Assembly: GCF_022846255.1 (NCBI RefSeq)
Contig: NZ_AP025682.1
DNA length: 64,000 nt
From: Escherichia coli
GTDB lineage: Bacteria; Pseudomonadota; Gammaproteobacteria; Enterobacterales; Enterobacteriaceae
Reading direction: 5' to 3' (one strand)
The notes beneath the pieces were generated by a model. That model was given only the letters and a program-made list of their open reading frames with translations, did no database searches and was not told where the DNA came from. Made by a program: the position numbers and the translations under genes. Positions 2,487-46,410 of the stretch are shown piece by piece (position 1 is the first letter of the stretch; every line of letters begins with the position of its first letter).

Positions 2487-2639
2487 CTACTTCTTCGGTT
2501 CGTAAGCGAGAACAACCTTAAACTCAATATTACGTTCCTTTACGGTAAACTCACACAGCGAGTCTCCGACCAGAAGCGTAAATCCCAGCACCGTTAAACA
2601 CAGCACTATGACTGCCACAAGGGCATATTTCGTCAGCAT
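2487..2639 (-). CDS. hokE: Hok-family type I toxin (50 aa), copy 1
   Basis: Protein [50 protein letters not shown] matches the Hok/Gef family; single TM helix; cat (ATG on the reverse strand) at 2637-2639. Confidence 0.85.
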
Positions 2640-2739
2640 GTTTATATTGCCTCCATGCGAAGAAGGGACTACCATCCAAATTGTTCAGGTTTGGGTAGGT
2701 AGCCCCAAGGTTGATAGAAATATCGTCCTGGGGCTTCAT
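2551..2739 (-). CDS. mokE: mok (modulator of killing) leader ORF overlapping the hok start, copy 1
   Basis: 62-aa ORF in a different frame overlapping the 5' end of hok, the standard hok/sok architecture; translation not verifiable from sequence. Confidence 0.5.
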
Positions 2740-2990
2740 CTTTCCAGACCTCAGAGTAAACCTGAAACCGGAAAGCTTCAGGCACCCGCAGTTATCTTAC
2801 CCTTCCTTAGCAAAATAGCTGTTTATTTATACAGTGAGTCCTGTTTAGGACTTTTCACCTGTATTATCGCCCATGCCAGTAAAACGAAATCGCCCGCAGC
2901 CATCTCTGACTGCGGGCGAAAGTGTAAAGCAGGTGCCTTACCATCCTGACCTGACAACCGGATATGCGGGGATTACTCCCCGCACAACGG

Positions 2991-3143
2991 CTACTTCTTC
3001 GGTTCGTAAGCGAGAACAGCCTTAAACTCAATATTACGTTCCTTTACGGTAAACTCACACAGCGAGTCTCCGACCAGAAGCGTAAATCCCAGCACCGTTA
3101 AACACAGCACTATGACTGCCACAAGGGCATATTTCGTCAGCAT
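2991..3143 (-). CDS. hokE: Hok-family type I toxin (50 aa), copy 2
   Basis: Same as copy 1 except Val to Ala at residue 42 (EFKAV); this version matches the K-12 HokE sequence as recalled. Confidence 0.85.
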
Positions 3144-3243
3144 GTTTATATTGCCTCCATGCGAAGAAGGGACTACCATCCAAATTGTTCAGGTTTGGGT
3201 AGGTAGCCCCAGGGTTGATAGAAATATCGTCCTGGGGCTTCAT
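3055..3243 (-). CDS. mokE: mok leader ORF, copy 2
   Basis: Overlapping ORF as in copy 1, with a Leu to Pro difference at residue 11. Confidence 0.5.
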
Positions 3244-3579
3244 CTTTCCAGACCTCAGAGTAAACCTGAAACCGGAAAGCTTCAGGCACCCGCAGTTATC
3301 TTACCCTTCCTTAGCAAAATAGCTGTTTATTTATACAGTGAGTCCTGTTTCGGACTTCTCATTTAATCAACTGAAGCTGAACCCGTTTTTTTCTGCATGC
3401 CTCAATCGTCAAAATTCTTCGCCGCCAGCCAGCTCTGCCATAACTTGTCACATTGCAAAAGTAGCCAAATTGCTTCAGTCACAATCAGTTCTCCATCACC
3501 AAAAAAAGAAACATTCCAGAACTTCCGCATCTCACCCAGCCGCTCCCACTTCTATACTGAATAGAAAACGCCAACATAA

Positions 3580-4707
<1,128 letters not shown>

Positions 4708-16170: not shown

Positions 16171-17602
16171 GCCATTTCAGCGCCCGTTTTCGCTGGCAAC
16201 CCGCCTGACCTTTTTTATCAGCCTCGCCACCATCGCGGCGTTTTTCGCCTTTGCATGGATCATGATCCACTCGGTAAAAGTGCATTTTGCCGAGCAGGAT
16301 ATTAATGATTTAAAGGAGATTAGCGCCACCCTTGAACGGGTACTTAATCACCCTGACGAAACGCAAGCCCGACGCTTAATGACGCTGGAAGATATCGTCA
16401 GTGGTTATTCCAATGTGTTGATCTCCCTGGCAAATAGCCACGGTAAAACGGTGTATCACTCCCCAGGTGCGCCGGATATCCGCGAGTTTACGCGTGACGC
16501 CATACCCGATAAAGACGCGCAGGCTGGCGAGGTGTATCTCCTTTCCGGCCCGACGATGATGATGCCAGGGCACGGTCACGGGCATATGGAACACAGCAAC
16601 TGGCGGATGATTAACTTGCCGGTTGGCCCGCTGGTTGACGGCAAACCGATTTATACGCTCTACATCGCGCTTTCGATCGATTTTCATCTTCATTACATCA
16701 ATGATTTGATGAATAAACTTATTATGACCGCATCGGTAATCAGCATCCTGATCGTCTTTATCGTGCTGTTGGCGGTATATAAAGGTCATGCGCCGATCCG
16801 CAGCGTCAGCCGTCAAATCCAGAATATCACCTCGAAAGATCTCGACGTTCGCCTTGACCCGCAGACCGTGCCCATTGAGCTGGAACAGCTGGTACTGTCG
16901 TTCAACCATATGATCGAGCGTATTGAGGATGTCTTTACCCGCCAGTCCAATTTCTCAGCGGATATAGCCCACGAAATTCGCACACCTATTACTAATCTCA
17001 TTACGCAAACGGAAATCGCCCTCAGCCAGTCGCGCAGCCAGAAGGAGCTGGAAGATGTGCTCTACTCTAATCTCGAAGAGCTGACGCGAATGGCGAAAAT
17101 GGTCAGCGATATGCTGTTTCTTGCTCAGGCCGATAACAACCAGCTAATCCCCGAAAAGAAAATGCTCAACCTGGCGGATGAAGTCGGCAAAGTGTTCGAT
17201 TTTTTCGAGGCGTTAGCAGAAGATCGCTGCGTGGAGCTGCGGTTTGTTGGCGACGAGTGTCAGGTTGCGGGCGATCCGCTGATGCTGCGTCGGGCGTTAA
17301 GCAACCTGCTTTCTAATGCCCTGCGTTATACGCCAACCGGAGAGACAATTGTCGTGCGCTGCCAGACGGTCGATCACCTGGTGCAAGTTACCGTCGAAAA
17401 CCCCGGTACGCCCATTGCGCCCGAACACTTACCGCGATTGTTTGACCGTTTCTACCGCATTGATCCTTCCCGCCAGCGAAAAGGCGAAGGTAGCGGCATT
17501 GGTCTGGCGATAGTGAAATCGATTGTTGTCGCGCATAAAGGCACTGTTACAGTAACGTCAGATGCACGGGGGACAAGGTTTGTTATCATATTACCCGCTT
17601 AA
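16160..17602 (+). CDS. cusS: Sensor histidine kinase CusS
   Basis: 480 aa; overlaps the cusR stop by 11 nt; HAMP and HisKA/HATPase motifs. Confidence 0.95.
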
Positions 17603-17751
17603 TCCTTCAGCAAACGGCAACTTTTATAACCAGTGTAAAAATAACATGCCGCAATAGTAATACCTATTAATGATAAAAAGCTGTCACAATTCATAAAAAA
17701 CCTTAATATACGCCACCCTAAACATAACCAGCGTTAATGTAAGGTTTTTGT

Positions 17752-19989
17752 GTGGACTGGCTTCTTGATGTTTTTGCTACCTGGCTCTACGGCTTAAAAG
17801 TAATCGCGATAACGTTAGCGGTCATTATGTTCATCAGCGGGCTGGACGATTTTTTTATTGATGTCGTCTACTGGGTACGCCGCATTAAACGCAAGTTGAG
17901 TGTTTATCGCCGCTACCCGCGAATGAGTTACCGCGAACTGTATAAACCAGATGAAAAACCGTTAGCGATTATGGTTCCGGCGTGGAATGAAACGGGCGTC
18001 ATCGGCAATATGGCCGAGCTGGCGGCGACCACGCTCGACTACGAAAACTATCATATCTTTGTTGGCACCTACCCCAACGACCCCGATACTCAGCGTGATG
18101 TTGACGAAGTGTGCGCTCGCTTCCCGAACGTGCATAAGGTAGTCTGCGCGCGTCCTGGCCCCACCAGCAAAGCCGACTGTCTGAACAACGTGCTGGACGC
18201 CATCACCCAATTTGAACGTAGCGCCAATTTCGCTTTTGCTGGTTTTATTCTGCATGACGCCGAAGATGTGATTTCACCGATGGAATTGCGTCTGTTCAAC
18301 TATCTGGTCGAGCGTAAAGATCTGATTCAGATCCCAGTGTATCCGTTCGAACGCGAATGGACGCACTTCACCAGCATGACCTACATTGATGAGTTTTCAG
18401 AACTGCATGGCAAAGATGTTCCGGTGCGTGAAGCCCTCGCCGGACAGGTGCCCAGCGCAGGCGTCGGCACCTGTTTCAGCCGCCGCGCCGTGACCGCACT
18501 GTTAGCTGACGGTGACGGTATTGCTTTCGACGTGCAGAGTCTGACTGAAGATTACGACATTGGCTTCCGCCTGAAAGAGAAAGGTATGACGGAAATTTTT
18601 GTCCGTTTTCCGGTGGTGGACGAAGCCAAAGAACGCGAGCAGCGTAAATTTTTACAGCATGCGCGGACGTCAAACATGATCTGCGTGCGCGAATATTTCC
18701 CCGATACCTTTTCGACTGCGGTTCGGCAAAAATCTCGCTGGATCATCGGCATTGTTTTCCAGGGCTTTAAAACCCACAAATGGACCTCCAGCCTGACGCT
18801 GAACTACTTTCTCTGGCGCGACCGCAAAGGGGCAATCAGTAACTTTGTCAGCTTCCTCGCGATGCTGGTGATGATCCAGCTTTTGCTGTTGCTGGCGTAT
18901 GAAAGTTTGTGGCCCGATGCCTGGCATTTCCTTTCTATTTTCAGCGGCAGCGCATGGTTAATGACTCTGCTGTGGCTAAACTTTGGCTTGATGATTAACC
19001 GCATCGTGCAGCGGGTGATTTTCGTTACTGGCTACTACGGCCTGACGCAGGGGCTGCTATCTGTCCTGCGTCTTTTCTGGGGCAACCTGATTAACTTCAT
19101 GGCCAACTGGCGCGCGTTAAAACAGGTACTTCAACACGGCGATCCACGTCGCGTCGCGTGGGATAAAACAACGCATGACTTCCCCAGCGTGACTGGCGAT
19201 ACCCGCTCGTTGCGTCCGTTAGGTCAAATCCTGCTGGAAAATCAGGTCATCACTGAAGAACAACTCGATACAGCACTGCGTAATCGCGTCGAAGGTCTAC
19301 GCCTGGGCGGTTCAATGCTGATGCAGGGGCTGATTAGCGCCGAGCAACTGGCACAGGCGCTGGCAGAGCAAAACGGCGTGGCGTGGGAATCCATCGATGC
19401 CTGGCAGATCCCTTCCTCGCTGATTGCCGAAATGCCGGCCTCCGTGGCGTTGCATTATGCGGTACTGCCGCTGCGTCTGGACAATGATGAGTTAATTGTC
19501 GGCAGTGAAGATGGTATTGACCCGGTTTCGCTGGCGGCCCTGACGCGTAAAGTCGGACGCAAAGTGCGTTACGTCATTGTTCTGCGGGGACAAATTGTCA
19601 CCGGATTACGCCACTGGTATGCACGCCGACGCGGTCACGATCCGCGGGCAATGTTGTACAATGCAGTTCAGCATCAGTGGCTCACGGAACAGCAGGCCGG
19701 TGAAATCTGGCGGCAATATGTGCCGCATCAGTTCCTGTTCGCAGAAATACTGACCACGCTCGGTCATATTAATCGTTCAGCAATTAACGTGTTGTTATTG
19801 CGCCATGAACGCAGTTCTCTGCCGCTCGGCAAGTTTTTGGTCACCGAAGGCGTTATCAGCCAGGAAACGTTGGATCGCGTCCTGACAATTCAACGCGAAT
19901 TACAAGTTTCGATGCAATCACTATTACTCAAAGCAGGTTTAAACACTGAACAGGTTGCACAACTGGAGTCCGAAAATGAAGGAGAATAA
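17752..19989 (+). CDS. nfrB: NfrB, inner-membrane glycosyltransferase-family protein required for phage N4 adsorption
   Basis: 745 aa; GT2-like N-terminal region and C-terminal soluble domain. Confidence 0.93.
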   Translation: MDWLLDVFATWLYGLKVIAITLAVIMFISGLDDFFIDVVYWVRRIKRKLSVYRRYPRMSYRELYKPDEKPLAIMVPAWNETGVIGNMAELAATTLDYENYHIFVGTYPNDPDTQRDVDEVCARFPNVHKVVCARPGPTSKADCLNNVLDAITQFERSANFAFAGFILHDAEDVISPMELRLFNYLVERKDLIQIPVYPFEREWTHFTSMTYIDEFSELHGKDVPVREALAGQVPSAGVGTCFSRRAVTALLADGDGIAFDVQSLTEDYDIGFRLKEKGMTEIFVRFPVVDEAKEREQRKFLQHARTSNMICVREYFPDTFSTAVRQKSRWIIGIVFQGFKTHKWTSSLTLNYFLWRDRKGAISNFVSFLAMLVMIQLLLLLAYESLWPDAWHFLSIFSGSAWLMTLLWLNFGLMINRIVQRVIFVTGYYGLTQGLLSVLRLFWGNLINFMANWRALKQVLQHGDPRRVAWDKTTHDFPSVTGDTRSLRPLGQILLENQVITEEQLDTALRNRVEGLRLGGSMLMQGLISAEQLAQALAEQNGVAWESIDAWQIPSSLIAEMPASVALHYAVLPLRLDNDELIVGSEDGIDPVSLAALTRKVGRKVRYVIVLRGQIVTGLRHWYARRRGHDPRAMLYNAVQHQWLTEQQAGEIWRQYVPHQFLFAEILTTLGHINRSAINVLLLRHERSSLPLGKFLVTEGVISQETLDRVLTIQRELQVSMQSLLLKAGLNTEQVAQLESENEGE

Positions 19990-35693: not shown

Positions 35694-36416
35694 GTGGCGA
35701 CACTCTTTATTGCAGATCTTCATCTCTGCGCGGAAGAACCGGCGATCACCGCCGGTTTTCTGCGTTTTTTAGCGGGGGAGGCCCGCAAGGCCGATGCGCT
35801 GTATATTCTTGGCGATCTGTTTGAAGCCTGGATCGGCGACGACGATCCCAACCCGCTCCATCGCCAGATGGCGGCAGCGATCAAAGCGGTGTCCGATTCC
35901 GGCGTTCCCTGTTATTTCATTCATGGCAACCGTGATTTTCTGCTCGGCAAACGCTTTGCCCGTGAAAGCGGCATGACGTTATTGCCGGAAGAAAAGGTGC
36001 TCGAACTTTATGGTCGTCGGGTGTTGATTATGCATGGCGACACGCTGTGCACCGATGACGCGGGTTATCAGGCTTTTCGTGCCAAAGTCCACAAACCCTG
36101 GCTGCAAACGCTATTCCTCGCCCTGCCGTTGTTTGTGCGCAAACGCATTGCCGCGCGAATGCGCGCGAACAGTAAAGAAGCCAACAGCAGTAAATCGCTG
36201 GCGATCATGGACGTTAACCAAAACGCGGTGGTCAGTGCGATGGAAAAACATCAGGTGCAATGGCTGATTCACGGGCATACCCATCGCCCGGCAGTACATG
36301 AACTTATCGCCAATCAGCAACCTGCTTTCCGCGTCGTGCTGGGTGCCTGGCATACGGAAGGTTCAATGGTGAAAGTCACGGCGGATGACGTTGAGCTGAT
36401 TCATTTTCCGTTTTAA
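35694..36416 (+). CDS. lpxH: UDP-2,3-diacylglucosamine hydrolase LpxH
   Basis: 240 aa with calcineurin-like metallophosphatase motifs (DLH, GDLFE, GNRD). Confidence 0.95.
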
Positions 36417-36532
36417 ATACCCGCAACTTTGCTGATTTCACAGCCACGCAACCGTTTTCCTTGCTCTCTTTCCGTGCTATTCTCTGTGCCCTCTAAAGCC
36501 GAGAGTTGTGCACCACAGGAGTTTTAAGACGC

Positions 36533-37042: not shown

Positions 37043-38106
37043 AACAGGTTTGCGTCCTCGGTAACGGGCAGTTAGGCCGTATGCTGCGTCAGGCAGGCGA
37101 ACCGTTAGGCATTGCTGTCTGGCCAGTCGGGCTGGACGCTGAACCGGCGGCGGTGCCTTTTCAACAAAGCGTGATTACCGCTGAGATAGAACGCTGGCCG
37201 GAAACCGCATTAACCCGCGAGCTGGCGCGCCATCCGGCCTTTGTGAACCGCGATGTGTTCCCGATTATTGCTGACCGTCTGACTCAGAAGCAGCTTTTCG
37301 ATAAGCTCCACCTGCCGACCGCACCGTGGCAGTTACTTTCCGAACACAGCGAGTGGCCTGCGGTGTTTGATCGTTTAGGTGAGCTGGCGATTGTTAAACG
37401 TCGCACTGGTGGCTATGACGGACGCGGTCAATGGCGTTTACGCGCCGATGAAACCGAACAGTTACCGGCTGAATGCTACGGCGAATGTATTGTCGAGCAG
37501 GGCATAAACTTCTCAGGTGAAGTGTCGCTGGTTGGCGCGCGCGGCTTTGATGGCAGCACCGTGTTTTATCCGCTGACGCATAACCTGCATCAGAACGGCA
37601 TTTTGCGCACCAGCGTCGCTTTCCCGCAGGCCAATGCACAGCAACAGGCGCAAGCTGAAGAGATGTTGTCGGCGATTATGCAGGAGCTGAGCTATGTGGG
37701 CGTGATGGCGATGGAGTGTTTTGTCACCCCACAAGGTCTGCTGATCAACGAACTGGCTCCGCGTGTGCATAACAGCGGTCACTGGACGCAAAACGGTGCC
37801 AGCATCAGCCAGTTTGAGCTACATCTGCGGGCAATTACCGATCTGCCGTTACCGCAACCAGTAGTGAATAATCCGTCGGTGATGATCAATCTGATTGGTA
37901 GCGATCTGAATTATGACTGGCTGAAACTGCCGCTTGTGCATCTGCACTGGTACGACAAAGAAGTCCGTCCGGGCCGTAAAGTGGGGCATTTGAATTTGAC
38001 CGACAGCGACACATCGCGTCTGACCGCGACGCTGGAAGCCTTAATCCCACTGCTGCCGCCGGAGTATGCCAGCGGCGTGATGTGGGCGCAGAGCAAGTTC
38101 AGTTAA
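37039..38106 (+). CDS. purK: N5-carboxyaminoimidazole ribonucleotide synthase PurK
   Basis: 355 aa ATP-grasp protein; overlaps the purE stop by 4 nt. Confidence 0.95.
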
Positions 38107-38123
38107 TTGATGCTCATTTTCTT

Positions 38124-38310
38124 GCCGGATGCGGCGTGAACGCCTTATCCGGCCTACCGTTCCAACACCGCCTGTAGGCCTGATAAGATGCGCCAGCATC
38201 GCATCAGGCATGGTGTGCCGATTGCCGCATGCGGCGTGAACGCCTTATCCGGCCTACCGTTCCAACACCGACTGTAGGCCTGATAAGACGCGCCAGCATC
38301 GCATCAGGCT
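38124..38310. repeat. BIME: two tandem units of about 101 bp, each an inverted REP pair
   Basis: gcc(g/a)(g/c)atgcggcgtgaacgccttatccggcctac ... ctgtaggcctgataaga(t/c)gcgccagcatcgcatcaggc occurs twice in direct repeat. Confidence 0.85.
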
Positions 38311-38338
38311 AGATGTGCCAATTGCCTGGTGCCCATCA

Positions 38339-39232
38339 CTACAGCGAAATACAAGTCCCCGCTTCGCCCGCCAGCGTCTCTTCAATCCGCGATAACGCCC
38401 CAATCCACGCGGGTTTACCACGGCTTCTGACATAGCCACTCACCGCCGTTACCTTCGGCCCCATCGAACCATCGGCTTTGGCAAATGGCGCTAACTCATC
38501 CGGTGTGGCATGGCGAATGGCACGTTGCTGCGGCGTTCCCCAGTTTTCATATACCGCATCAGCATCGGTGAGGATCACCAGTCCATCGGCATTAATCTGC
38601 TCGGCGAGCAACGCAGCGGCGAGATCTTTATCAATCACCGCTTCACTCCCTGCCCCGTCTTCCGTCACAGGCACACCGCCGCCGCCACTGCAAATCACCA
38701 CATGCCCCTCTTTGAGCAACAACTCGATGGCTTCGCTGTCGAGAATTTTACGCGGTTGCGGAGACGCCACCACCCGGCGTAAATATTTACCATCACGTTT
38801 CATCTGCCAGCCGTAAGCCGCTTCCAGTGCCTCTTGTTCTTCTGGCTGATAAACCGGACCAATAAATTTCTCTGGCTGTAAAAACGCCGGATCATCAGGC
38901 GAAACCTCAATGCGCGTCAGCACCGTCGTGACAGGCGGCATCTGCGGCTGTGCGCTCAAGCTCTGCGCCAGCATATAGCCAATCATCCCCTGGCTTTCCG
39001 CCACCAGTACATCCAGCGGATACGGTTCTACCTCTTTCCACGCCAGATTCTGTAACGCCAGCAGCCCCACCTGCGGTCCGTTGCCGTGAACAATCGCCAG
39101 CCGATAAGAACGGGCCAGGCGCGCCAGCGCGGGTACAGCACTGGCAATATTGCGATATTGATTTTTTGCCGTCAGCGCCTCACCGCGCTGGAGTAAGGCG
39201 TTGCCCCCAAGAGCCACAACCAGTGTTTTCAT
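38339..39232 (-). CDS. ybcF: Carbamate kinase-like protein YbcF
   Basis: Start [15 protein letters not shown] (typical carbamate kinase N-terminus); its ATG overlaps the ylbF stop; the ORF-track N-terminal extension is rejected. Confidence 0.88.
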
Positions 39233-40044
39233 GGTTTCCCTTGTAATAATTGTTGGCCAAGCCAGAACCCCAGCAGCGTATCGGCCCCTGACGTATGCCC
39301 CAGCGCCAGCAGCGAATCGATCGCCGCTGCGGTACGTTTCGGGCAACTCAGAGCATGAACAAAGTGCAGGAGTGGCGAGGCGAAATATCCTTGCGCGGCA
39401 TAACGTAAATAACTGACGCTCACCGCAGTGGTAACGAGTTGAAGATTGTCGGAACAGGCAAAAAACGGGCGACCGGAGCGCGCATCTAAAGCACCATAAT
39501 ACCAGGCCGCCAGCAGCATTCCGCTCAGCGTGTCATCATGACTTGGCGTTAATCCGGGGCCTTTACCCAGCCAGTGCCGCCAGTCGGTCTTAACGCCATT
39601 GAGCGCGGCCTGAAAACAGTGACGAAACTGGCGTAATTCAGCAGGCAGCGGATCGCTTGCCGCCAATGCCAGTGGCCCGAAAAGCCCGGTTTCCTCCGCG
39701 CGTTGCATCCATGCAACGGCAAGCGGTTGAGGATGCGCAGGCGGCGTAATACGTAGCAAACAATAACGCTGTGGCTGTTTAACCGTGAAACGCCCGAGAC
39801 GAATCCCTTGTGCCACAACCTGTGGTCGTTCATTGCCGCATAATCCACCGCATAACGCATCGAATTGCGCGCGGCGAAGCACCCATCCGCCGGGGCCGAA
39901 ACCACTCCCCTGACGATGCAGCGTTAACAGTTCGCCGCTTTCCGTCATCAGGTTAATCGCCCGCCGCCACACTCCCGCTAACCGCCAGGACTGGCGATAA
40001 TTCGGTGCGCTACGGCTGGCAAGTAGAGGATGGATGATCGTCAT
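39229..40044 (-). CDS. ylbF: YlbF (DUF2877 family), member of the fdrA-ylbE-ylbF-ybcF operon
   Basis: Start [14 protein letters not shown]...; 271 aa. Confidence 0.82.
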
Positions 40045-40054
40045 TGTGCGTTCC

Positions 40055-41314
40055 TCAACCAATCCCCATGCTTTCAGCCAGTGCTTCCAGCGCCTGTTCA
40101 AAGCACGCCAGCGGTGCCCGCACGGTGCCTGCGCCAATCTGCCCGATCCCCGCCTCTTTATGGGCGATACCGGTATTGATGAGTGGCGTAATGCCGGTTT
40201 CTACCACGCGACGAATGTCCAGCCCCAGGCACGCCCCCTGGAAATCCCAGCCGGGGATCTGCAATTGCATATTGCGTTCAAGGTAAATTTCCGCCATCTC
40301 TTCAGATACCGCTCTGGCCGCTTCCATGCCACCCGCACCGACAAAGCGCGTTACGCCAGGCGCTGCGATCATTGCCGCACCTCCGATACCAAAGGTTTCG
40401 GTAATCGCGCTATCGCCCATATCCGGGTTCGCCTGCTCCTGCGAGAAGCCGGTGAAAAACAGACCTTGCGGAGTGTTTACAGGCGCAGTAAACCAGCGTT
40501 CACCCAGCCCGCTTACCCGAATCCCGAACATATTGCCGTTGCGGGTCATAGCCGTAACGATGCTGCCTGCGCGGATCATCGCGCCTGCATCCATCGCCGC
40601 CTTGCAGTAGGCCATCGCGAGATTGAGGAAGAACTGATCGGTCACGCTGAGGAAATCCATCACTTCGGCGATGTGCTGTTTATCATGATCGAGGCGAGCA
40701 ATTTGTGGGGCCAGCGCACGCATTAACAGTGCAGAGGAAGCAATATTGCGTTGATGGAACTCATCGCCCATGGTAATGCCCTGCGCCATCATTGCCGTGA
40801 GATCGATACCGCGCTCCATGCGCCCCAGCGCCGCGCTTAATACTGGCATTAACACATCGCGCATCCAGCGATGGCGAGTCAGGACATCTTCGCCGTAAGC
40901 GCCAAAACGCATCACTTTGCCGATACCTTCGTTGAGGTTGCAGTACGCCCGGTTGCCGTCGGTCACGTTCTCGACCACCAGCATCGGCATACTGGCAGAA
41001 GTAATGCCACCCATTGGCCCGACGGCATTCACATGGTGACAAGGAATGAAGTTCACTTCCCCCTGCTCCAGTATTGCCAGCGCCTGCGCTTCATCTTTCG
41101 CCCAGCCTTCGAACAGACATGCGCCCACGCACGCCCCTTTCATGGGTCCGGTCATCTCCTGCCAGCGCATTGGCGGCCCGGCGTGAAGCAGTGTTTTGCC
41201 CTTGTTTAGTTCGCTGATAAGTGAAGAAGCCGGTTGCACATCCAGCCAGTGTGGACGAGCGCGACGAATTTGTTCGATAACCGCAGCATTGGCTTGCGCC
41301 ACTGATGTAAACAT
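40055..41314 (-). CDS. ylbE: YlbE (DUF1116 family), intact 419-aa reading frame
   Basis: Single uninterrupted ORF; recalled as a frameshifted pseudogene in MG1655. Confidence 0.85.
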
Positions 41315-41323
41315 GGGAACCCC

Positions 41324-42991
41324 TTATTGCAAACGTTCTAATAAACGAGCCAGTTTTTTATTGCCGCCGGCGACTGGCGACCATTGGTAATGCACAACCG
41401 GTTTGCTGGCGCTTTGTAGCTCCAGCGCAAAGCTGCGTAATCCGATGTTAATCACGGCGACGTTTTCCAGTAATGACGGTGTGTGTTGCTGTGTGGCAGG
41501 CGAGAGCGGATGAATTAATGCCGCCGCCAGCAAGGTGGCTTCCGGTAGCGAACTCACTACCGCGATCCCCGCATCTTCCAGCGTGGCAATTTGCTGCGAG
41601 CGACATTGCGGATCACGTTCAGTGCCTGTCACCGTGGCAATGGCATACAGTGGTTGATTGTCTGAACGCGCGGCACAGGCTTTTTGCCAGGCGCTCACCA
41701 GCGAGGCGGCAGGATCGGCGGTCGCACCGAAGCCAATCACGACATCAAGCAGCAACACGCGCACTTGCGGTTTAGCGCCGAGATCGGCAATTAACAGGTT
41801 GCGTAAGGTCGGGTCGATCATCGGATGGGGACGCCCGACGGTGTAAAAATCATCGCCCAGGTCGAGGATCTGATGTCCGTCGGCGTCCAGCATCATGCCA
41901 TGTTGATGGGTATCGTCGGCTTCCACGCCAAGGTGTCCGGCAAGTAATCCCGCCGCTTCAGCAGCCAGCGTACCGCCGGTATACAAACCGCAAATAAATC
42001 CGCTGCTGACAGGCGCTATCGCGTTACGTCGCGCAGTGACGCGTGAAAGCAGACAAGCCAGACGAGCGGCCTCATCCAGCGAGGAGGCAAACCAGACATT
42101 CTCGTCGCGGGCCACCGCTGGGGTATAACCTAAAAACAGCGCCACCGTCGGTTTGCCAGTTGCTTTCATGGCATTAACAATTTTCAGACGCACAGTTTCG
42201 GCAGGTGGTTTTGAAACAAATGCCAGCACTTCGCTTTTCTCGTCTGCACTGAGCATTTCCAGCGCCGTTAGCGCACTGATGCCGCCCACTTCACGGCTGA
42301 GATCGCGCCCGCCAAGACCAATCGCGTGAGTAATTCCCTCCCCTGCCAGCGCAATCTGTGAGCACAGCTCCTGAATCCCGGTACCGGAAGCGCCTATGAC
42401 GCCAATGTTGCCTTCCGGCATCACGTTAGCAAAAGCCAGCGGCGTGGCGGCAATCATCGACGTACCGCAGTCTGGCCCCATCACCAGCAAGCCTTTTTCC
42501 CGCGCGCGCGTTTTAAGTTGGATTTCATCTTCCAGCGTGACGTTATCGGAGAACATCATCACGTTGAGGTTGCGATCCAGCGCCTGGTTCGCCAGCTCCG
42601 CCGCATACTCACCAGCCACTGAAATCAGCGCCAGATTGGCATCGGGTAATTTCTGACTGGCACTGTCCCAGCGACGCACCTGCGTCAACGCCTGGCTGCT
42701 GCCTGAACCCTGCGCCAGTTGTTTTAGCGCCTCTTCAAGCTGCTGCATAACCGCCTGCGCGATCCCCGCATCCGCCGCTTCGCTACGAATTGCCACGCAA
42801 ATATCGTTCGGCGTGGCGTTATTAAAATCGTCATGCCAGAAACCTGTAGTATCTAATAACGCTTTATTGGCGGGCGTACCCATCATTACGGAAACATCAT
42901 CAACATTTTCTGATTCGCTGAGTTTTCGTGAAATAATCATTAAACTGACCGAATCCTGAAAACACCCTTTTTTAATAAAGGCGTGGATCAT
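41324..42991 (-). CDS. fdrA: FdrA (CoA-ligase/succinyl-CoA synthetase-like fold)
   Basis: 555 aa; sequence recognised as FdrA. Confidence 0.9.
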   Translation of the reverse strand: MIHAFIKKGCFQDSVSLMIISRKLSESENVDDVSVMMGTPANKALLDTTGFWHDDFNNATPNDICVAIRSEAADAGIAQAVMQQLEEALKQLAQGSGSSQALTQVRRWDSASQKLPDANLALISVAGEYAAELANQALDRNLNVMMFSDNVTLEDEIQLKTRAREKGLLVMGPDCGTSMIAATPLAFANVMPEGNIGVIGASGTGIQELCSQIALAGEGITHAIGLGGRDLSREVGGISALTALEMLSADEKSEVLAFVSKPPAETVRLKIVNAMKATGKPTVALFLGYTPAVARDENVWFASSLDEAARLACLLSRVTARRNAIAPVSSGFICGLYTGGTLAAEAAGLLAGHLGVEADDTHQHGMMLDADGHQILDLGDDFYTVGRPHPMIDPTLRNLLIADLGAKPQVRVLLLDVVIGFGATADPAASLVSAWQKACAARSDNQPLYAIATVTGTERDPQCRSQQIATLEDAGIAVVSSLPEATLLAAALIHPLSPATQQHTPSLLENVAVINIGLRSFALELQSASKPVVHYQWSPVAGGNKKLARLLERLQ

Positions 42992-43228
42992 AACAACTCC
43001 TTAAAAATTGCACCCATGGCAATTGCACGAGCAGTGTTAATGTGGCGATTACGGTATCGATGACAACGAGTAAATAAGGTGATGAATATCACACGTGGAT
43101 TATTAACAAAAGAATTCAAATAACCGCCAGACTATTACGCGTTATTTTTTAATAAGCATGGTTGTTTTAAAAACCAGGTTAAAAGCACGAAGATTATCAA
43201 ATAAATTCTAACTATATTTTTTTGCCTG

Positions 43229-43248
43229 TCTGGATCACATAATCCAGA
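43229..43248. promoter_or_regulatory. Inverted repeat TCTGGAT-cacata-ATCCAGA upstream of allD; candidate AllS (LysR-type) operator
   Basis: Perfect 7-bp arms seen directly, about 60-80 bp upstream of the allD ATG; assignment to AllS is inference. Confidence 0.4.
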
Positions 43249-43307
43249 TATTTTCCCTGTATGTTAATTGCAGTCATGCTTCACACCGTCGTTAAAAAGG
43301 AAGACAG

Positions 43308-44357
43308 ATGAAAATCAGTCGGGAAACACTCCACCAGCTAATCGAGAATAAACTCTGCCAGGCTGGGTTAAAACGTGAGCACGCTGCAACCGTGGCTGAA
43401 GTATTGGTTTACGCCGATGCCAGAGGGATCCACTCTCATGGCGCGGTGCGCGTTGAATACTACGCCGAACGCATTTCAAAAGGCGGCACCAACCGCGAAC
43501 CGGAGTTTCGTCTTGAGGAAACCGGACCGTGCTCGGCAATTTTACATGCCGACAATGCCGCCGGACAGGTCGCGGCGAAAATGGGTATGGAACATGCCAT
43601 CAAAACCGCCCAGCAAAAAGGCGTTGCGGTGGTCGGTATCAGCCGGATGGGTCACAGCGGCGCAATCTCTTATTTTGTGCAGCAGGCTGCCCGCGCCGGA
43701 TTGATTGGCATTTCGCTGTGCCAGTCCGATCCAATGGTGGTGCCGTTTGGCGGCGCGGAAATTTACTACGGCACTAACCCACTGGCCTTTGCCGCGCCGG
43801 GAGAAGGCGACGAGATCCTTACCTTTGATATGGCGACTACCGTACAGGCATGGGGAAAAGTGCTCGACGCCCGCTCGCGCAATATGTCTATCCCGGATAC
43901 CTGGGCAGTCGATAAAAACGGTGCACCAACAACCGATCCGTTCGCGGTACATGCTCTGCTCCCCGCCGCTGGGCCGAAAGGGTATGGCCTGATGATGATG
44001 ATTGACGTCCTCTCAGGCGTCTTACTCGGCTTACCGTTCGGGCGACAGGTTAGTTCGATGTATGACGATTTACACGCCGGGCGTAATTTGGGGCAATTAC
44101 ATATAGTTATTAACCCGAACTTTTTCTCCTCCAGCGAATTATTCCGTCAACATCTTAGCCAGACCATGCGCGAATTAAATACCATTACCCCCGCGCCCGG
44201 TTTTAATCAGGTTTATTATCCCGGACAGGATCAGGATATTAAACAACGCAAAGCCGCCGTCGAAGGCATCGAAATTGTTGATGATATTTACCAGTATTTA
44301 ATTTCCGACGCGCTTTATAACACGTCATACGAAACGAAAAATCCCTTTGCGCAATAA
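43308..44357 (+). CDS. allD: Ureidoglycolate dehydrogenase AllD
   Basis: 349 aa. Confidence 0.95.
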   Translation: MKISRETLHQLIENKLCQAGLKREHAATVAEVLVYADARGIHSHGAVRVEYYAERISKGGTNREPEFRLEETGPCSAILHADNAAGQVAAKMGMEHAIKTAQQKGVAVVGISRMGHSGAISYFVQQAARAGLIGISLCQSDPMVVPFGGAEIYYGTNPLAFAAPGEGDEILTFDMATTVQAWGKVLDARSRNMSIPDTWAVDKNGAPTTDPFAVHALLPAAGPKGYGLMMMIDVLSGVLLGLPFGRQVSSMYDDLHAGRNLGQLHIVINPNFFSSSELFRQHLSQTMRELNTITPAPGFNQVYYPGQDQDIKQRKAAVEGIEIVDDIYQYLISDALYNTSYETKNPFAQ

Positions 44358-44378
44358 TTATTGAGACAGGACTTTCTT

Positions 44379-45614
44379 ATGATTACACATTTCCGTCAAG
44401 CTATAGAAGAAACGCTGCCCTGGCTTTCCTCTTTTGGCGCTGACCCAGCGGGTGGGATGACCCGTTTACTTTATTCGCCGGAATGGCTGGAAACCCAGCA
44501 GCAGTTTAAAAAAAGAATGGCAGCAAGCGGGCTGGAAACACGTTTCGATGAAGTGGGGAATTTATACGGTCGCCTGAGTGGCACCGAATATCCACAGGAA
44601 GTGGTTCTGAGCGGTTCGCATATCGATACCGTGGTTAACGGCGGTAACCTCGACGGGCAATTCGGTGCGCTGGCGGCGTGGCTGGCAATTGACTGGCTGA
44701 AAACGCAATACGGCGCGCCGTTACGTACGGTCGAAGTGGTGGCGATGGCAGAAGAAGAAGGCAGCCGCTTCCCGTATGTCTTCTGGGGCAGTAAAAATAT
44801 CTTTGGGCTGGCGAATCCTGACGACGTGCGGAATATCTGTGATGCCAAAGGAAATAGTTTTGTCGATGCGATGAAGGCTTGCGGATTTACTCTGCCGAAC
44901 GCCCCACTAACTCCGCGTCAGGATATTAAAGCCTTTGTCGAACTGCATATCGAACAGGGCTGTGTGCTGGAAAGTAATGGGCAGTCAATTGGCGTGGTGA
45001 ATGCAATTGTCGGGCAACGTCGCTATACGGTGACGCTGAACGGTGAATCAAACCATGCAGGCACCACGCCGATGGGTTATCGTCGTGATACGGTTTACGC
45101 TTTCAGTCGCATTTGCCATCAGTCTGTCGAAAAAGCGAAAAAGATGGGCGACCCGCTGGTTCTGACCTTTGGCAAAGTAGAGCCGCGCCCGAATACGGTG
45201 AATGTAGTGCCGGGTAAAACCACGTTCACCATTGATTGTCGTCATACCGATGCTACCGTGCTGCGCGATTTCACCCAACAGTTAGAAAACGACATGCGGG
45301 CGATTTGCGATGAAATGGATATTGGTATTGATATCGATTTATGGATGGACGAAGAACCCGTGCCGATGAATAAGGAGCTGGTCGCCACCCTGACAGAATT
45401 GTGTGAAAGCGAAAAACTGAATTACCGGGTGATGCACAGTGGTGCCGGGCACGACGCGCAAATTTTCGCGCCTCGCGTGCCGACCTGCATGATTTTCATT
45501 CCCAGCATCAACGGGATCAGCCATAACCCGGCGGAACGCACCAATATTACCGACCTTGCCGAAGGGGTCAAAACGTTGGCACTCATGCTTTATCAACTTG
45601 CCTGGCAGAAATAA
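44379..45614 (+). CDS. allC: Allantoate amidohydrolase AllC
   Basis: Start MITHFRQAIEE... at ATG 44379 (411 aa); M20-peptidase family. Confidence 0.93.
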   Translation: MITHFRQAIEETLPWLSSFGADPAGGMTRLLYSPEWLETQQQFKKRMAASGLETRFDEVGNLYGRLSGTEYPQEVVLSGSHIDTVVNGGNLDGQFGALAAWLAIDWLKTQYGAPLRTVEVVAMAEEEGSRFPYVFWGSKNIFGLANPDDVRNICDAKGNSFVDAMKACGFTLPNAPLTPRQDIKAFVELHIEQGCVLESNGQSIGVVNAIVGQRRYTVTLNGESNHAGTTPMGYRRDTVYAFSRICHQSVEKAKKMGDPLVLTFGKVEPRPNTVNVVPGKTTFTIDCRHTDATVLRDFTQQLENDMRAICDEMDIGIDIDLWMDEEPVPMNKELVATLTELCESEKLNYRVMHSGAGHDAQIFAPRVPTCMIFIPSINGISHNPAERTNITDLAEGVKTLALMLYQLAWQK

Positions 45615-45624
45615 GGAGTTATAA

Positions 45625-46410
45625 ATGGGATATTTAAATAACGTCACCGGTTACCGCGAAGATTTACTGGCTAACCGTGCGATTGTTAAACACGGTAATT
45701 TCGCACTGTTAACACCAGACGGTCTGGTAAAAAATATTATTCCGGGCTTTGAAAATTGTGACGCGACAATCCTCTCCACGCCAAAGCTGGGTGCCTCTTT
45801 TGTTGATTATCTGGTCACACTGCATCAAAACGGCGGCAACCAACAGGGTTTCGGTGGCGAAGGCATTGAAACGTTCCTGTATGTGATCTCTGGAAATATC
45901 ACTGCCAAAGCCGAAGGGAAAACATTTACCTTAAGTGAAGGTGGCTATCTTTATTGCCCGCCAGGCTCCTTAATGACGTTTGTTAACGCCCAGGCCGAAG
46001 ACAGCCAAATCTTTTTATATAAGCGTCGCTATATTCCGGTAGAAGGTCATGCGCCGTGGCTGGTTTCTGGCAATGCCAGCGAACTGGAACGCATTCATTA
46101 TGAAGGCATGGACGATGTTATTCTGCTGGATTTTCTGCCCAAAGAGTTAGGTTTTGATATGAACATGCATATCCTCTCTTTTGCACCAGGTGCCAGCCAC
46201 GGTTATATCGAAACCCACGTTCAGGAACACGGTGCCTATATTCTTTCCGGTCAGGGGGTTTATAACCTCGACAATAACTGGATCCCGGTGAAAAAAGGCG
46301 ATTACATCTTTATGGGCGCTTATTCTTTACAGGCTGGTTATGGCGTAGGGCGTGGTGAAGCGTTCAGCTATATTTACTCGAAAGATTGCAACCGCGACGT
46401 AGAGATTTAA
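45625..46410 (+). CDS. allE: (S)-ureidoglycine aminohydrolase AllE (YlbA), cupin
   Basis: 261-aa bicupin. Confidence 0.93.
   Translation: MGYLNNVTGYREDLLANRAIVKHGNFALLTPDGLVKNIIPGFENCDATILSTPKLGASFVDYLVTLHQNGGNQQGFGGEGIETFLYVISGNITAKAEGKTFTLSEGGYLYCPPGSLMTFVNAQAEDSQIFLYKRRYIPVEGHAPWLVSGNASELERIHYEGMDDVILLDFLPKELGFDMNMHILSFAPGASHGYIETHVQEHGAYILSGQGVYNLDNNWIPVKKGDYIFMGAYSLQAGYGVGRGEAFSYIYSKDCNRDVEI

Follow-up and report, generated by a model that had tools for sequence, protein, structure and literature searches.

The stretch of Escherichia coli DNA analyzed in this work (64,000 nt, hereafter the window) almost certainly carries the intact allFGHK operon, also named fdrA-ylbE-ylbF-ybcF, of a wild-type, non-K-12 strain, and jointly with this reading we hold the uninterrupted ylbE frame to be the ancestral and normal state in the species. 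The genes of the operon, their frames and the distances between them can be read directly in the window, and the enzymology, co-transcription and regulation are carried over from K-12 on the grounds of orthology, 98.4-99.5% protein identity and a common locus, and would apply here to that extent. Work published between 2022 and 2025 characterized the K-12 operon together with its enzymes and regulation (PMC9843812, PMC11326118, PMC12535856; Kim & Kim 2022, 2024, 2025). The operon and its functions are thus already known, and represent little as a discovery.

Organization and conservation of the operon

The initial annotation described four tightly packed genes on the reverse strand with ylbE as a single 419-aa frame, and the ORF list and coordinates bear this out (Table 1), with zero internal stops in ylbE. 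The fdrA stop is separated from the ylbE start by 9 bp and the ylbE stop from the ylbF start by 10 bp, and ylbF runs 4 nt into ybcF, its stop and the ybcF start overlapping as ATGA (...CCATGAAA). The starts of ylbF and ybcF were taken from the annotation of MG1655 and isolate AF16 (99.7% identical), as in the mechanical ORF list both frames run further upstream, to TTG codons. A purine-rich run resembling a Shine-Dalgarno sequence precedes each of the four starts (AAGGAG, AAGGGG, GAGGAA and AAGGGA). Such close spacing, with the ATGA overlap, would be consistent with translational coupling of the subunits, a property that we infer from this layout.

In K-12 (b0518, b4572, b0520, b0521), the operon has its genes in the same order as in the window and of the same lengths (1668, 1260, 816 and 894 nt), lies likewise between allD and purK, and is preceded by a promoter region of equal length (316 bp). 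As MG1655 also has identical intergenic spacing, the layout is conserved and constitutes no oddity of the window. Nucleotide identity between the corresponding genes is 96.8-98.4%, and the proteins differ at 2-9 positions each (FdrA 9/555, YlbE 2/419, YlbF 3/271, YbcF 3/297), and each of the four genes is under strong purifying selection relative to MG1655 (dN/dS 0.03-0.08, pS 0.06-0.11). The differences are allelic only, and include 15 substitutions in the regulatory region and another arrangement of the REP-type repeat after ybcF. Furthermore, the operon was found at 80% coverage or more in 5,407 of 5,426 complete E. coli genomes.

Table 1. Coordinates of the operon and associated features in the window.
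Feature	Position	Strand	Description
fdrA (allF)	41324-42991	minus	555 aa; ATG start, TAA stop; from the ORF list and coordinate arithmetic
ylbE (allG)	40055-41314	minus	419 aa; ATG start, TGA stop; no internal stop
ylbF (allH)	39229-40044	minus	271 aa; ATG start, TGA stop
ybcF (allK)	38339-39232	minus	297 aa; ATG start, TAG stop
allD-allF divergent regulatory region	42992-43307	.	316 bp, length as in MG1655
Counterpart of K-12 fragment allFp-203/-144 (AllS EMSA)	43135-43194	minus	10 of 60 positions differ from K-12
Counterpart of K-12 fragment allFp-142/-83 (phospho-ArcA EMSA)	43074-43133	minus	5 of 60 positions differ from K-12
G5 homopolymer, ylbE nt 252-256	41059-41063	minus	alignment of the window, MG1655 v3 and W3110
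Two tandem 100-bp REP-type palindrome units	38122-38326	.	immediately past the ybcF stop, in the spacer between convergent purK and ybcF

Genomic neighborhood and operon ends

Neighboring genes were named by the gap-free collinearity of window positions 38122-62991 with an annotated record, and this collinearity with annotated genomes upholds the proposed adjacency to the allantoin regulon. The allD-allC-allE genes (43308-46410, plus strand) stand head-to-head with the fdrA operon, with allD (43308-44357) beginning 316 bp from the fdrA start, and further allantoin genes (glxK, ybbY, allB, allW, glxR, hyi, gcl, allR, allA and allS) extend to about 58.3 kb.

At the opposite end, the repeat that follows ybcF has a period of 100, 2.0 copies and 93% matches according to Tandem Repeats Finder, and both the length of the purK/ybcF spacer and the repeat copy number vary between strains, the spacer measuring 232 bp in the window vs 194 bp in K-12. 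This REP-type spacer is likely the 3' end of the operon transcript; a scan of the spacer gave no canonical hairpin-plus-T-run terminator. Across positions 38000-43400, a consensus promoter scan returned 3 matches vs 3.6 in shuffled sequence, and a terminator scan returned 5 matches inside the operon vs 5.8 in shuffled sequence, neither being in excess, and therefore these scans say nothing on the transcript ends.

Protein families and predicted function

All four products surpass curated family cut-offs (NF004760, PF06545, PF11392 and NF006926). FdrA aligns over its full length (residues 1-555) to the 555-position NCBIfam model NF004760 'FdrA' with 1038.2 bits vs a cut-off of 433, and matches PDB 3DMY 'Protein fdrA' (E=9e-303); by family membership, AllF/FdrA is the putative largest subunit of oxamic transcarbamylase, with a predicted fold similar to that of the succinyl-CoA synthetase alpha chain. 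YlbE/AllG scores 326.7 bits against Pfam PF06545 'AllG' (cut-off 27) and matches PDB 3CLQ, an uncharacterized protein (E=1e-111), and YlbF/AllH scores 102.9 bits against Pfam PF11392 'AllH' (cut-off 25), with a search for solved structural relatives of YlbF giving none; both are assigned on these profiles as oxamic transcarbamylase subunits. The presence of a carbamate-kinase-like enzyme in the cluster, pointed out in the initial annotation, is confirmed by YbcF, which reaches 619.6 bits against the NCBIfam equivalog NF006926 (cut-off 416) and 425.8 bits against the arcC equivalog TIGR00746 (cut-off 358.25), and matches carbamate kinases in the PDB (8CRV at E=3e-89); ybcF is accordingly identified, by homology, as allK, a predicted catabolic carbamate kinase. 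Database names have already been updated in this respect, as Pfam uses AllG and AllH and RefSeq the product name 'oxamate carbamoyltransferase subunit AllH family protein'.

In the pathway expected from K-12, AllD, encoded by the adjacent gene, would oxidize ureidoglycolate to oxalurate, the three-subunit AllF-AllG-AllH enzyme would phosphorolyse oxalurate to oxamate and carbamoyl phosphate, and AllK would move the phosphate to ADP, yielding ATP, NH3 and CO2; the operon products would thus catalyze the two final steps in the anaerobic degradation of allantoin. A single mRNA from the divergent promoter region of allD and allF would carry all four genes, in agreement with their spacing in the window, and AllS and ArcA would activate this region when allantoin is present under anaerobiosis. 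The carbamoyl branch of purine catabolism, via oxalurate or oxamate, that had been suggested for this cluster agrees with the K-12 experiments (PMC9843812, PMC11326118, PMC12535856), in which the enzyme assays and anaerobic allantoin expression proposed as checks are already published for K-12. Purified AllF-AllG-AllH is described as interconverting oxamate plus carbamoyl phosphate and oxalurate plus Pi, with KM and Vmax measured, and single and triple deletions of allFGH as abolishing oxamate production, full restoration requiring all three genes (PMC11326118). Further, carbamate kinase activity is reported for YbcF, and RT-PCR is reported to detect a four-gene transcript in laboratory E. coli (PMC9843812).

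Classical transcarbamylases (ATCase PyrBI, OTCase ArgI/ArgF, and YgeW) likewise transfer the carbamoyl group to or from carbamoyl phosphate, but have no sequence relationship to AllFGH. Unlike them, AllF displays a succinyl-CoA-synthetase-like fold, AllG and AllH correspond to the former DUF1116 and DUF2877, and three different subunits are needed (PMC11326118). AllK resembles ArcC of the arginine deiminase pathway in making ATP from carbamoyl phosphate; however, its carbamoyl phosphate derives from oxalurate instead of citrulline, and its gene is located inside the allantoin cluster.

Reading frame of ylbE

The initial annotation described ylbE as frameshifted in MG1655, a claim that does not hold for the current reference: NC_000913.3 carries ylbE (b4572, YP_009029994.1) annotated as an intact 1260-nt CDS, and the alignment shows the MG1655 gene to be identical in length and reading frame to that of the window, a result that the annotation itself had named as refuting; the two genes differ at 20 nucleotides and their proteins at 2 residues, with a dN/dS of 0.033. 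The description has, nonetheless, a real origin in the W3110 record and in an earlier MG1655 reference. The pseudogene allele is the same gene at the same locus as in the window; the W3110 RefSeq record (NC_007779.1) contains a 1259-nt ylbE annotated as 'frameshifted', with G4 at nt 252-256 leading to a stop at codon 87, and with A instead of G at nt 114, whereas the window has an intact G5, as in NC_000913.3. The older MG1655 reference is presumably U00096.2, in which we take ylbE to be listed as a pseudogene. Citing Freddolino et al. 2012, PMC4404585 states that ylbE in K-12 strains departs from the MG1655 reference of that time at two sites, nt 114, where the change is silent, and nt 253, where 1 nt is inserted; the W3110 RefSeq record retains exactly these two differences.

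The frequency of the G4 allele was assessed, at the G-run site only, with a 61-nt G4 probe in the 5,416 complete E. coli genomes that contain the segment. The probe matched 5 records at 99% identity or more, the four listed at 100% being W3110 and three K-12-sized genomes with the match at identical coordinates, and the MG1655 assembly NZ_CP032667.1 and strain C600 gave no exact match. The frameshift allele is therefore present in at most 5 of 5,416 genomes (W3110 and at most four other records), and thus the uninterrupted ylbE is the species norm; the G4 allele may be a mutation of the laboratory lineage or a sequencing error.

Alternative interpretations

An intact ylbE could be taken to set this strain functionally apart, with K-12 MG1655 having no working YlbE and oxamate branch and the window representing a restored or ancestral state. 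The truncated frame of W3110 and the base missing at nt 253 in the earlier MG1655 reference, as given in PMC4404585, favor this interpretation; however, the intact gene of NC_000913.3 refutes it for MG1655, the G4 allele occurs in at most the five records mentioned above, and the 419-aa allG is reported as needed for oxamate production in laboratory E. coli (PMC11326118), so these strains carry a working ylbE. We consider such a functional difference very unlikely. The G5 run might also act as a slippage-prone switch turning the oxamate branch on and off, in a manner resembling phase variation, given that the sole frameshift seen in ylbE comes from a homopolymer that differs by 1 nt in length. 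This idea, which we regard as extremely improbable, was rejected on the scarcity of the off allele among the genomes surveyed, those carriers identified being K-12 laboratory records; furthermore, at 5 nt the run is short by the standards of contingency loci, and the low dN/dS of ylbE denotes strong purifying selection.

Regarding the enzyme itself, FdrA could be an acyl-CoA synthetase or an oxamate:CoA ligase, in which case the cluster would handle a CoA thioester and not encode a CoA-independent transcarbamylase. FdrA does contain CoA_binding and Ligase_CoA domains (Pfam), is weakly similar to succinyl-CoA synthetase alpha chains (E 1e-12 to 1e-4), and is called 'acyl-CoA synthetase FdrA' in most RefSeq records, a name owed to its succinyl-CoA-synthetase-like fold. 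However, the similarity is at the domain level only, as FdrA falls far below the cut-offs of succinate-CoA ligase alpha models (NF004230, 53.6 vs 336 bits; TIGR01019, 48 vs 353.2 bits), and RefSeq already designates the MG1655 protein 'putative oxamate carbamoyltransferase'. The interconversion catalyzed by the purified complex and the in vivo requirement for allF, allG and allH, both as reported in PMC11326118, also argue against a CoA-dependent activity, to which we assign a very low probability, and in favor of a transcarbamylase.

The allD-allF regulatory region

In K-12, an allF'-'lacZ fusion is reported to yield 4,007 MU under anaerobiosis with allantoin, 105 MU under anaerobiosis with NH4Cl, and 15-19 MU aerobically, the expression of allF being lost in allS and arcA deletion mutants; in EMSA, AllS bound the fragment allFp-203/-144 and phospho-ArcA bound allFp-142/-83 (PMC12535856). 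The counterparts of these two fragments were placed in the window by the fragment coordinates. The 15 substitutions relative to K-12 are all located at -200 to -104 from the fdrA ATG, with identical flanks. In the counterpart of the AllS fragment, the A/T-rich inverted-repeat core CTTTTAACCTG(A/G)TTTTTAAAACAAC is kept but for one base, and in that of the phospho-ArcA fragment the stretch GGTTATTTGAATTCTTTTGTTAATAAT is unchanged; allS itself is present in the window, as assigned by collinearity. Since all of the differences fall within the two EMSA fragments, K-12-like regulation by AllS and ArcA is only assumed for this strain.

The allD-allF allele of this strain is found at 99% identity or more in about 911 of 5,338 genomes. 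Its substitution density (15 in 97 bp, 15.5%) is somewhat higher than the 6-11% divergence at synonymous sites in the flanking genes; the clustering is compatible with near-neutral drift in a segment bounded on both sides by strongly conserved sequence, and gives no evidence of selection. There is a small chance that this allele alters the strength or the conditions of induction of the oxamate branch, which, if true, would mean that the anaerobic scavenging of purine nitrogen is controlled in a lineage-specific manner.

Implications for the annotation of E. coli genomes

The useful outcome of this analysis is a correction, as the description of ylbE as frameshifted in MG1655 goes back to an older reference and the W3110 record, and applies neither to the reference now in use nor to the species at large. 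Newly sequenced E. coli strains should therefore not be flagged as unusual for having an intact ylbE.

Organization of the operon and its products

Four genes lying consecutively on the minus strand, namely fdrA, ylbE, ylbF and ybcF (also named allF, allG, allH and allK), were confirmed by a six-frame open reading frame list covering 36-46 kb and by direct coordinate checks, which revealed no internal stops in any of the four frames; the layout proposed in the initial annotation was exact to the base. Spacings of 9 bp and 10 bp separate fdrA from ylbE and ylbE from ylbF, respectively, ylbF and ybcF overlap by 4 nt, an ATGA that holds the stop of the first and the start of the second, and a purine-rich Shine-Dalgarno-like run precedes every start, within or adjoining the end of the preceding gene. 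This gene spacing suggests that translation may be coupled across the operon. All four products exceed the cut-offs of curated NCBIfam or Pfam families. FdrA (3DMY), an uncharacterised YlbE homologue (3CLQ) and several carbamate kinases have solved structures; the structure match search of the four proteins found none for YlbF.

Features of the operon and its surroundings (window positions)
Feature	Position	Strand	Product	Start/stop	Family profile (score; cut-off, bits)
fdrA	41324-42991	-	555 aa	ATG/TAA	NCBIfam NF004760 (1038; 433)
ylbE	40055-41314	-	419 aa	ATG/TGA	Pfam PF06545, now named 'Oxamate carbamoyltransferase subunit AllG' (326.7; 27)
ylbF	39229-40044	-	271 aa	ATG/TGA	Pfam PF11392, 'AllH' (102.9; 25)
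ybcF	38339-39232	-	297 aa	ATG/TAG	NCBIfam NF006926, carbamate kinase equivalog (619.6; 416)
ylbE G5 run	41059-41063
Tandem repeat units	38122-38326
allD-allF region	42992-43307
Substitutions vs MG1655	43095-43191
AllS-fragment counterpart	43135-43194
ArcA-fragment counterpart	43074-43133
Gap-free collinearity with AF16	38122-62991
Collinearity break, lpxH/purE	36414-36442
Collinearity lost	~23840-31808

Downstream of ybcF, the convergent purK/ybcF spacer contains two tandem 100-bp units, 93% alike, each built of palindromes that we take to be of the REP type on the basis of the consensus GCCGGATGCGGCGTGAACGCCTTATCCGGCCTAC. At 232 bp, the window's spacer is longer than that of MG1655 (194 bp) and shorter than that of isolate AF16 (332 bp, three units); therefore, the repeat copy number differs among strains. 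Hits in a scan for consensus promoters and terminators did not exceed the level of shuffled sequence.

Distribution and genomic setting

The 4,653-bp operon segment has a match in 5,423 of 5,426 complete E. coli genomes, covering at least 80% of its length in 5,407. Identity to MG1655 is 96.8-98.4% gene by gene and the top matches, strains such as NC101 among them, reach 99.7%, indicating a non-K-12 E. coli chromosome. Positions 38122-62991 of the window are collinear without gaps with annotated AF16, where the operon is flanked by purK-purE-lpxH on one side and by allD-allC-allE, glxK, ybbY, allB, allW, glxR, hyi, gcl, allR, allA and allS on the other; given this collinearity, the whole allantoin cluster is present in the window.

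Two differences from AF16 were observed by BLAST outside this stretch. Between lpxH and purE (17556-18003 of the AF16 segment, L003), AF16 carries about 450 bp extra, including an annotated 330-nt hypothetical CDS, which the window lacks here. Collinearity is also lost over about 8 kb of the window between the nfrA/ybcH and folD sides. The sole AF16 counterpart of this sequence is a 183-bp match around its tRNA-Arg; at the equivalent position AF16 carries ompT and a methyltransferase together with integrase and tail-fibre remnants, and in the window the tRNA-Arg site probably holds a different prophage or island remnant.

The ylbE reading frame in K-12 records

The initial annotation had described ylbE as uninterrupted, which holds, and had set it against a frameshifted MG1655 gene, a contrast that is outdated: in NC_000913.3, ylbE (b4572, YP_009029994.1) is annotated as an intact 1260-nt CDS of the same frame and length, differing from the window at 20 nucleotides and 2 amino acids (E38K, S355G). 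A frameshifted version nevertheless exists in the K-12 W3110 RefSeq record (NC_007779.1), where ylbE is a 1259-nt pseudogene flagged 'frameshifted' (2582-3840 of the W3110 segment, L002). Alignment of this gene with the current MG1655 version revealed exactly two differences: W3110 has A in place of G at nt 114, and a run of four G (G4) where MG1655 has five (G5) at nt 252-256, the shorter run leading to a stop at codon 87. PMC4404585 reports the same two changes as separating K-12 strains from the MG1655 reference of its day, and credits them to Freddolino et al. 2012.

An intact ylbE could be read as setting the window strain apart from K-12, a reading refuted both by NC_000913.3 and by a 61-nt G4 probe, for which only 5 genomes out of 5,416 reached the band of at least 99% identity, the remainder showing a mismatch or gap. 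Four genomes are listed at 100%, namely W3110 and, with matches at identical coordinates, three K-12-sized genomes (strains CIT, LIM and CAR); in these three, G4 may reflect reference-guided assembly on an old reference and no true mutation. It is extremely improbable that the G5 run, the form present in the window, acts as a phase-variation switch, given its shortness and the restriction of the off allele to a handful of laboratory-lineage records. Given the rarity of G4, an intact ylbE is the species norm.

Function and regulation

The function suggested for the cluster in the initial annotation, carbamoyl handling in purine catabolism, agrees with published E. coli biochemistry (PMC11326118, PMC9843812, PMC12535856), and the measurements it proposed, expression under anaerobic allantoin growth and enzyme assays, are already in print; the system is known, described and named. 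In laboratory strains, purified AllF-AllG-AllH interconverts oxamate plus carbamoyl phosphate and oxalurate plus Pi, as an oxamic transcarbamylase (OXTCase) with KM values for carbamoyl phosphate and oxamate of 1.3 mM and 36.9 mM, respectively; deleting fdrA, ylbE or ylbF singly leaves little or no oxamate production from allantoin, which is fully restored only with all three together (PMC11326118). FdrA resembles the succinyl-CoA ligase alpha subunit, but at the domain level only and with scores far under cut-offs, and with OXTCase activity measured for the complex, a role as an acyl-CoA synthetase is very unlikely. YbcF (AllK) is the catabolic carbamate kinase, and RT-PCR detected all two-, three- and four-gene transcripts of the operon (PMC9843812). 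Under anaerobic conditions, an allF'-'lacZ fusion yielded 4,007 MU with allantoin and 105 MU with NH4Cl, against 15-19 MU under aerobic conditions, and deletion of allS or arcA lowered expression to about 100 MU; AllS bound fragment -203/-144 and phospho-ArcA fragment -142/-83 (PMC12535856).

The allD-allF region is 316 bp long, as in MG1655; its 15 substitutions relative to that strain are confined to positions -200 to -104 upstream of fdrA, with identical flanks of 116 bp on the allD side and 103 bp on the fdrA side. Ten of the substitutions fall in the AllS-fragment counterpart and five in that of ArcA, with the A/T-rich cores (CTTTTAACCTGNTTTTTAAAACAAC and GGTTATTTGAATTCTTTTGTTAATAAT) essentially kept. 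At 15.5%, divergence within the -200 to -104 stretch somewhat exceeds synonymous divergence in the flanking genes, and we read it as near-neutral drift between promoter flanks that are conserved; about 911 complete genomes carry this allele at 99% identity or more. Against MG1655, dN/dS was 0.076, 0.033, 0.040 and 0.049 for the four genes in order, with pS of 0.06-0.11. By orthology, backed by this strong purifying selection, the enzymology and regulation established in K-12 would carry over to the window.
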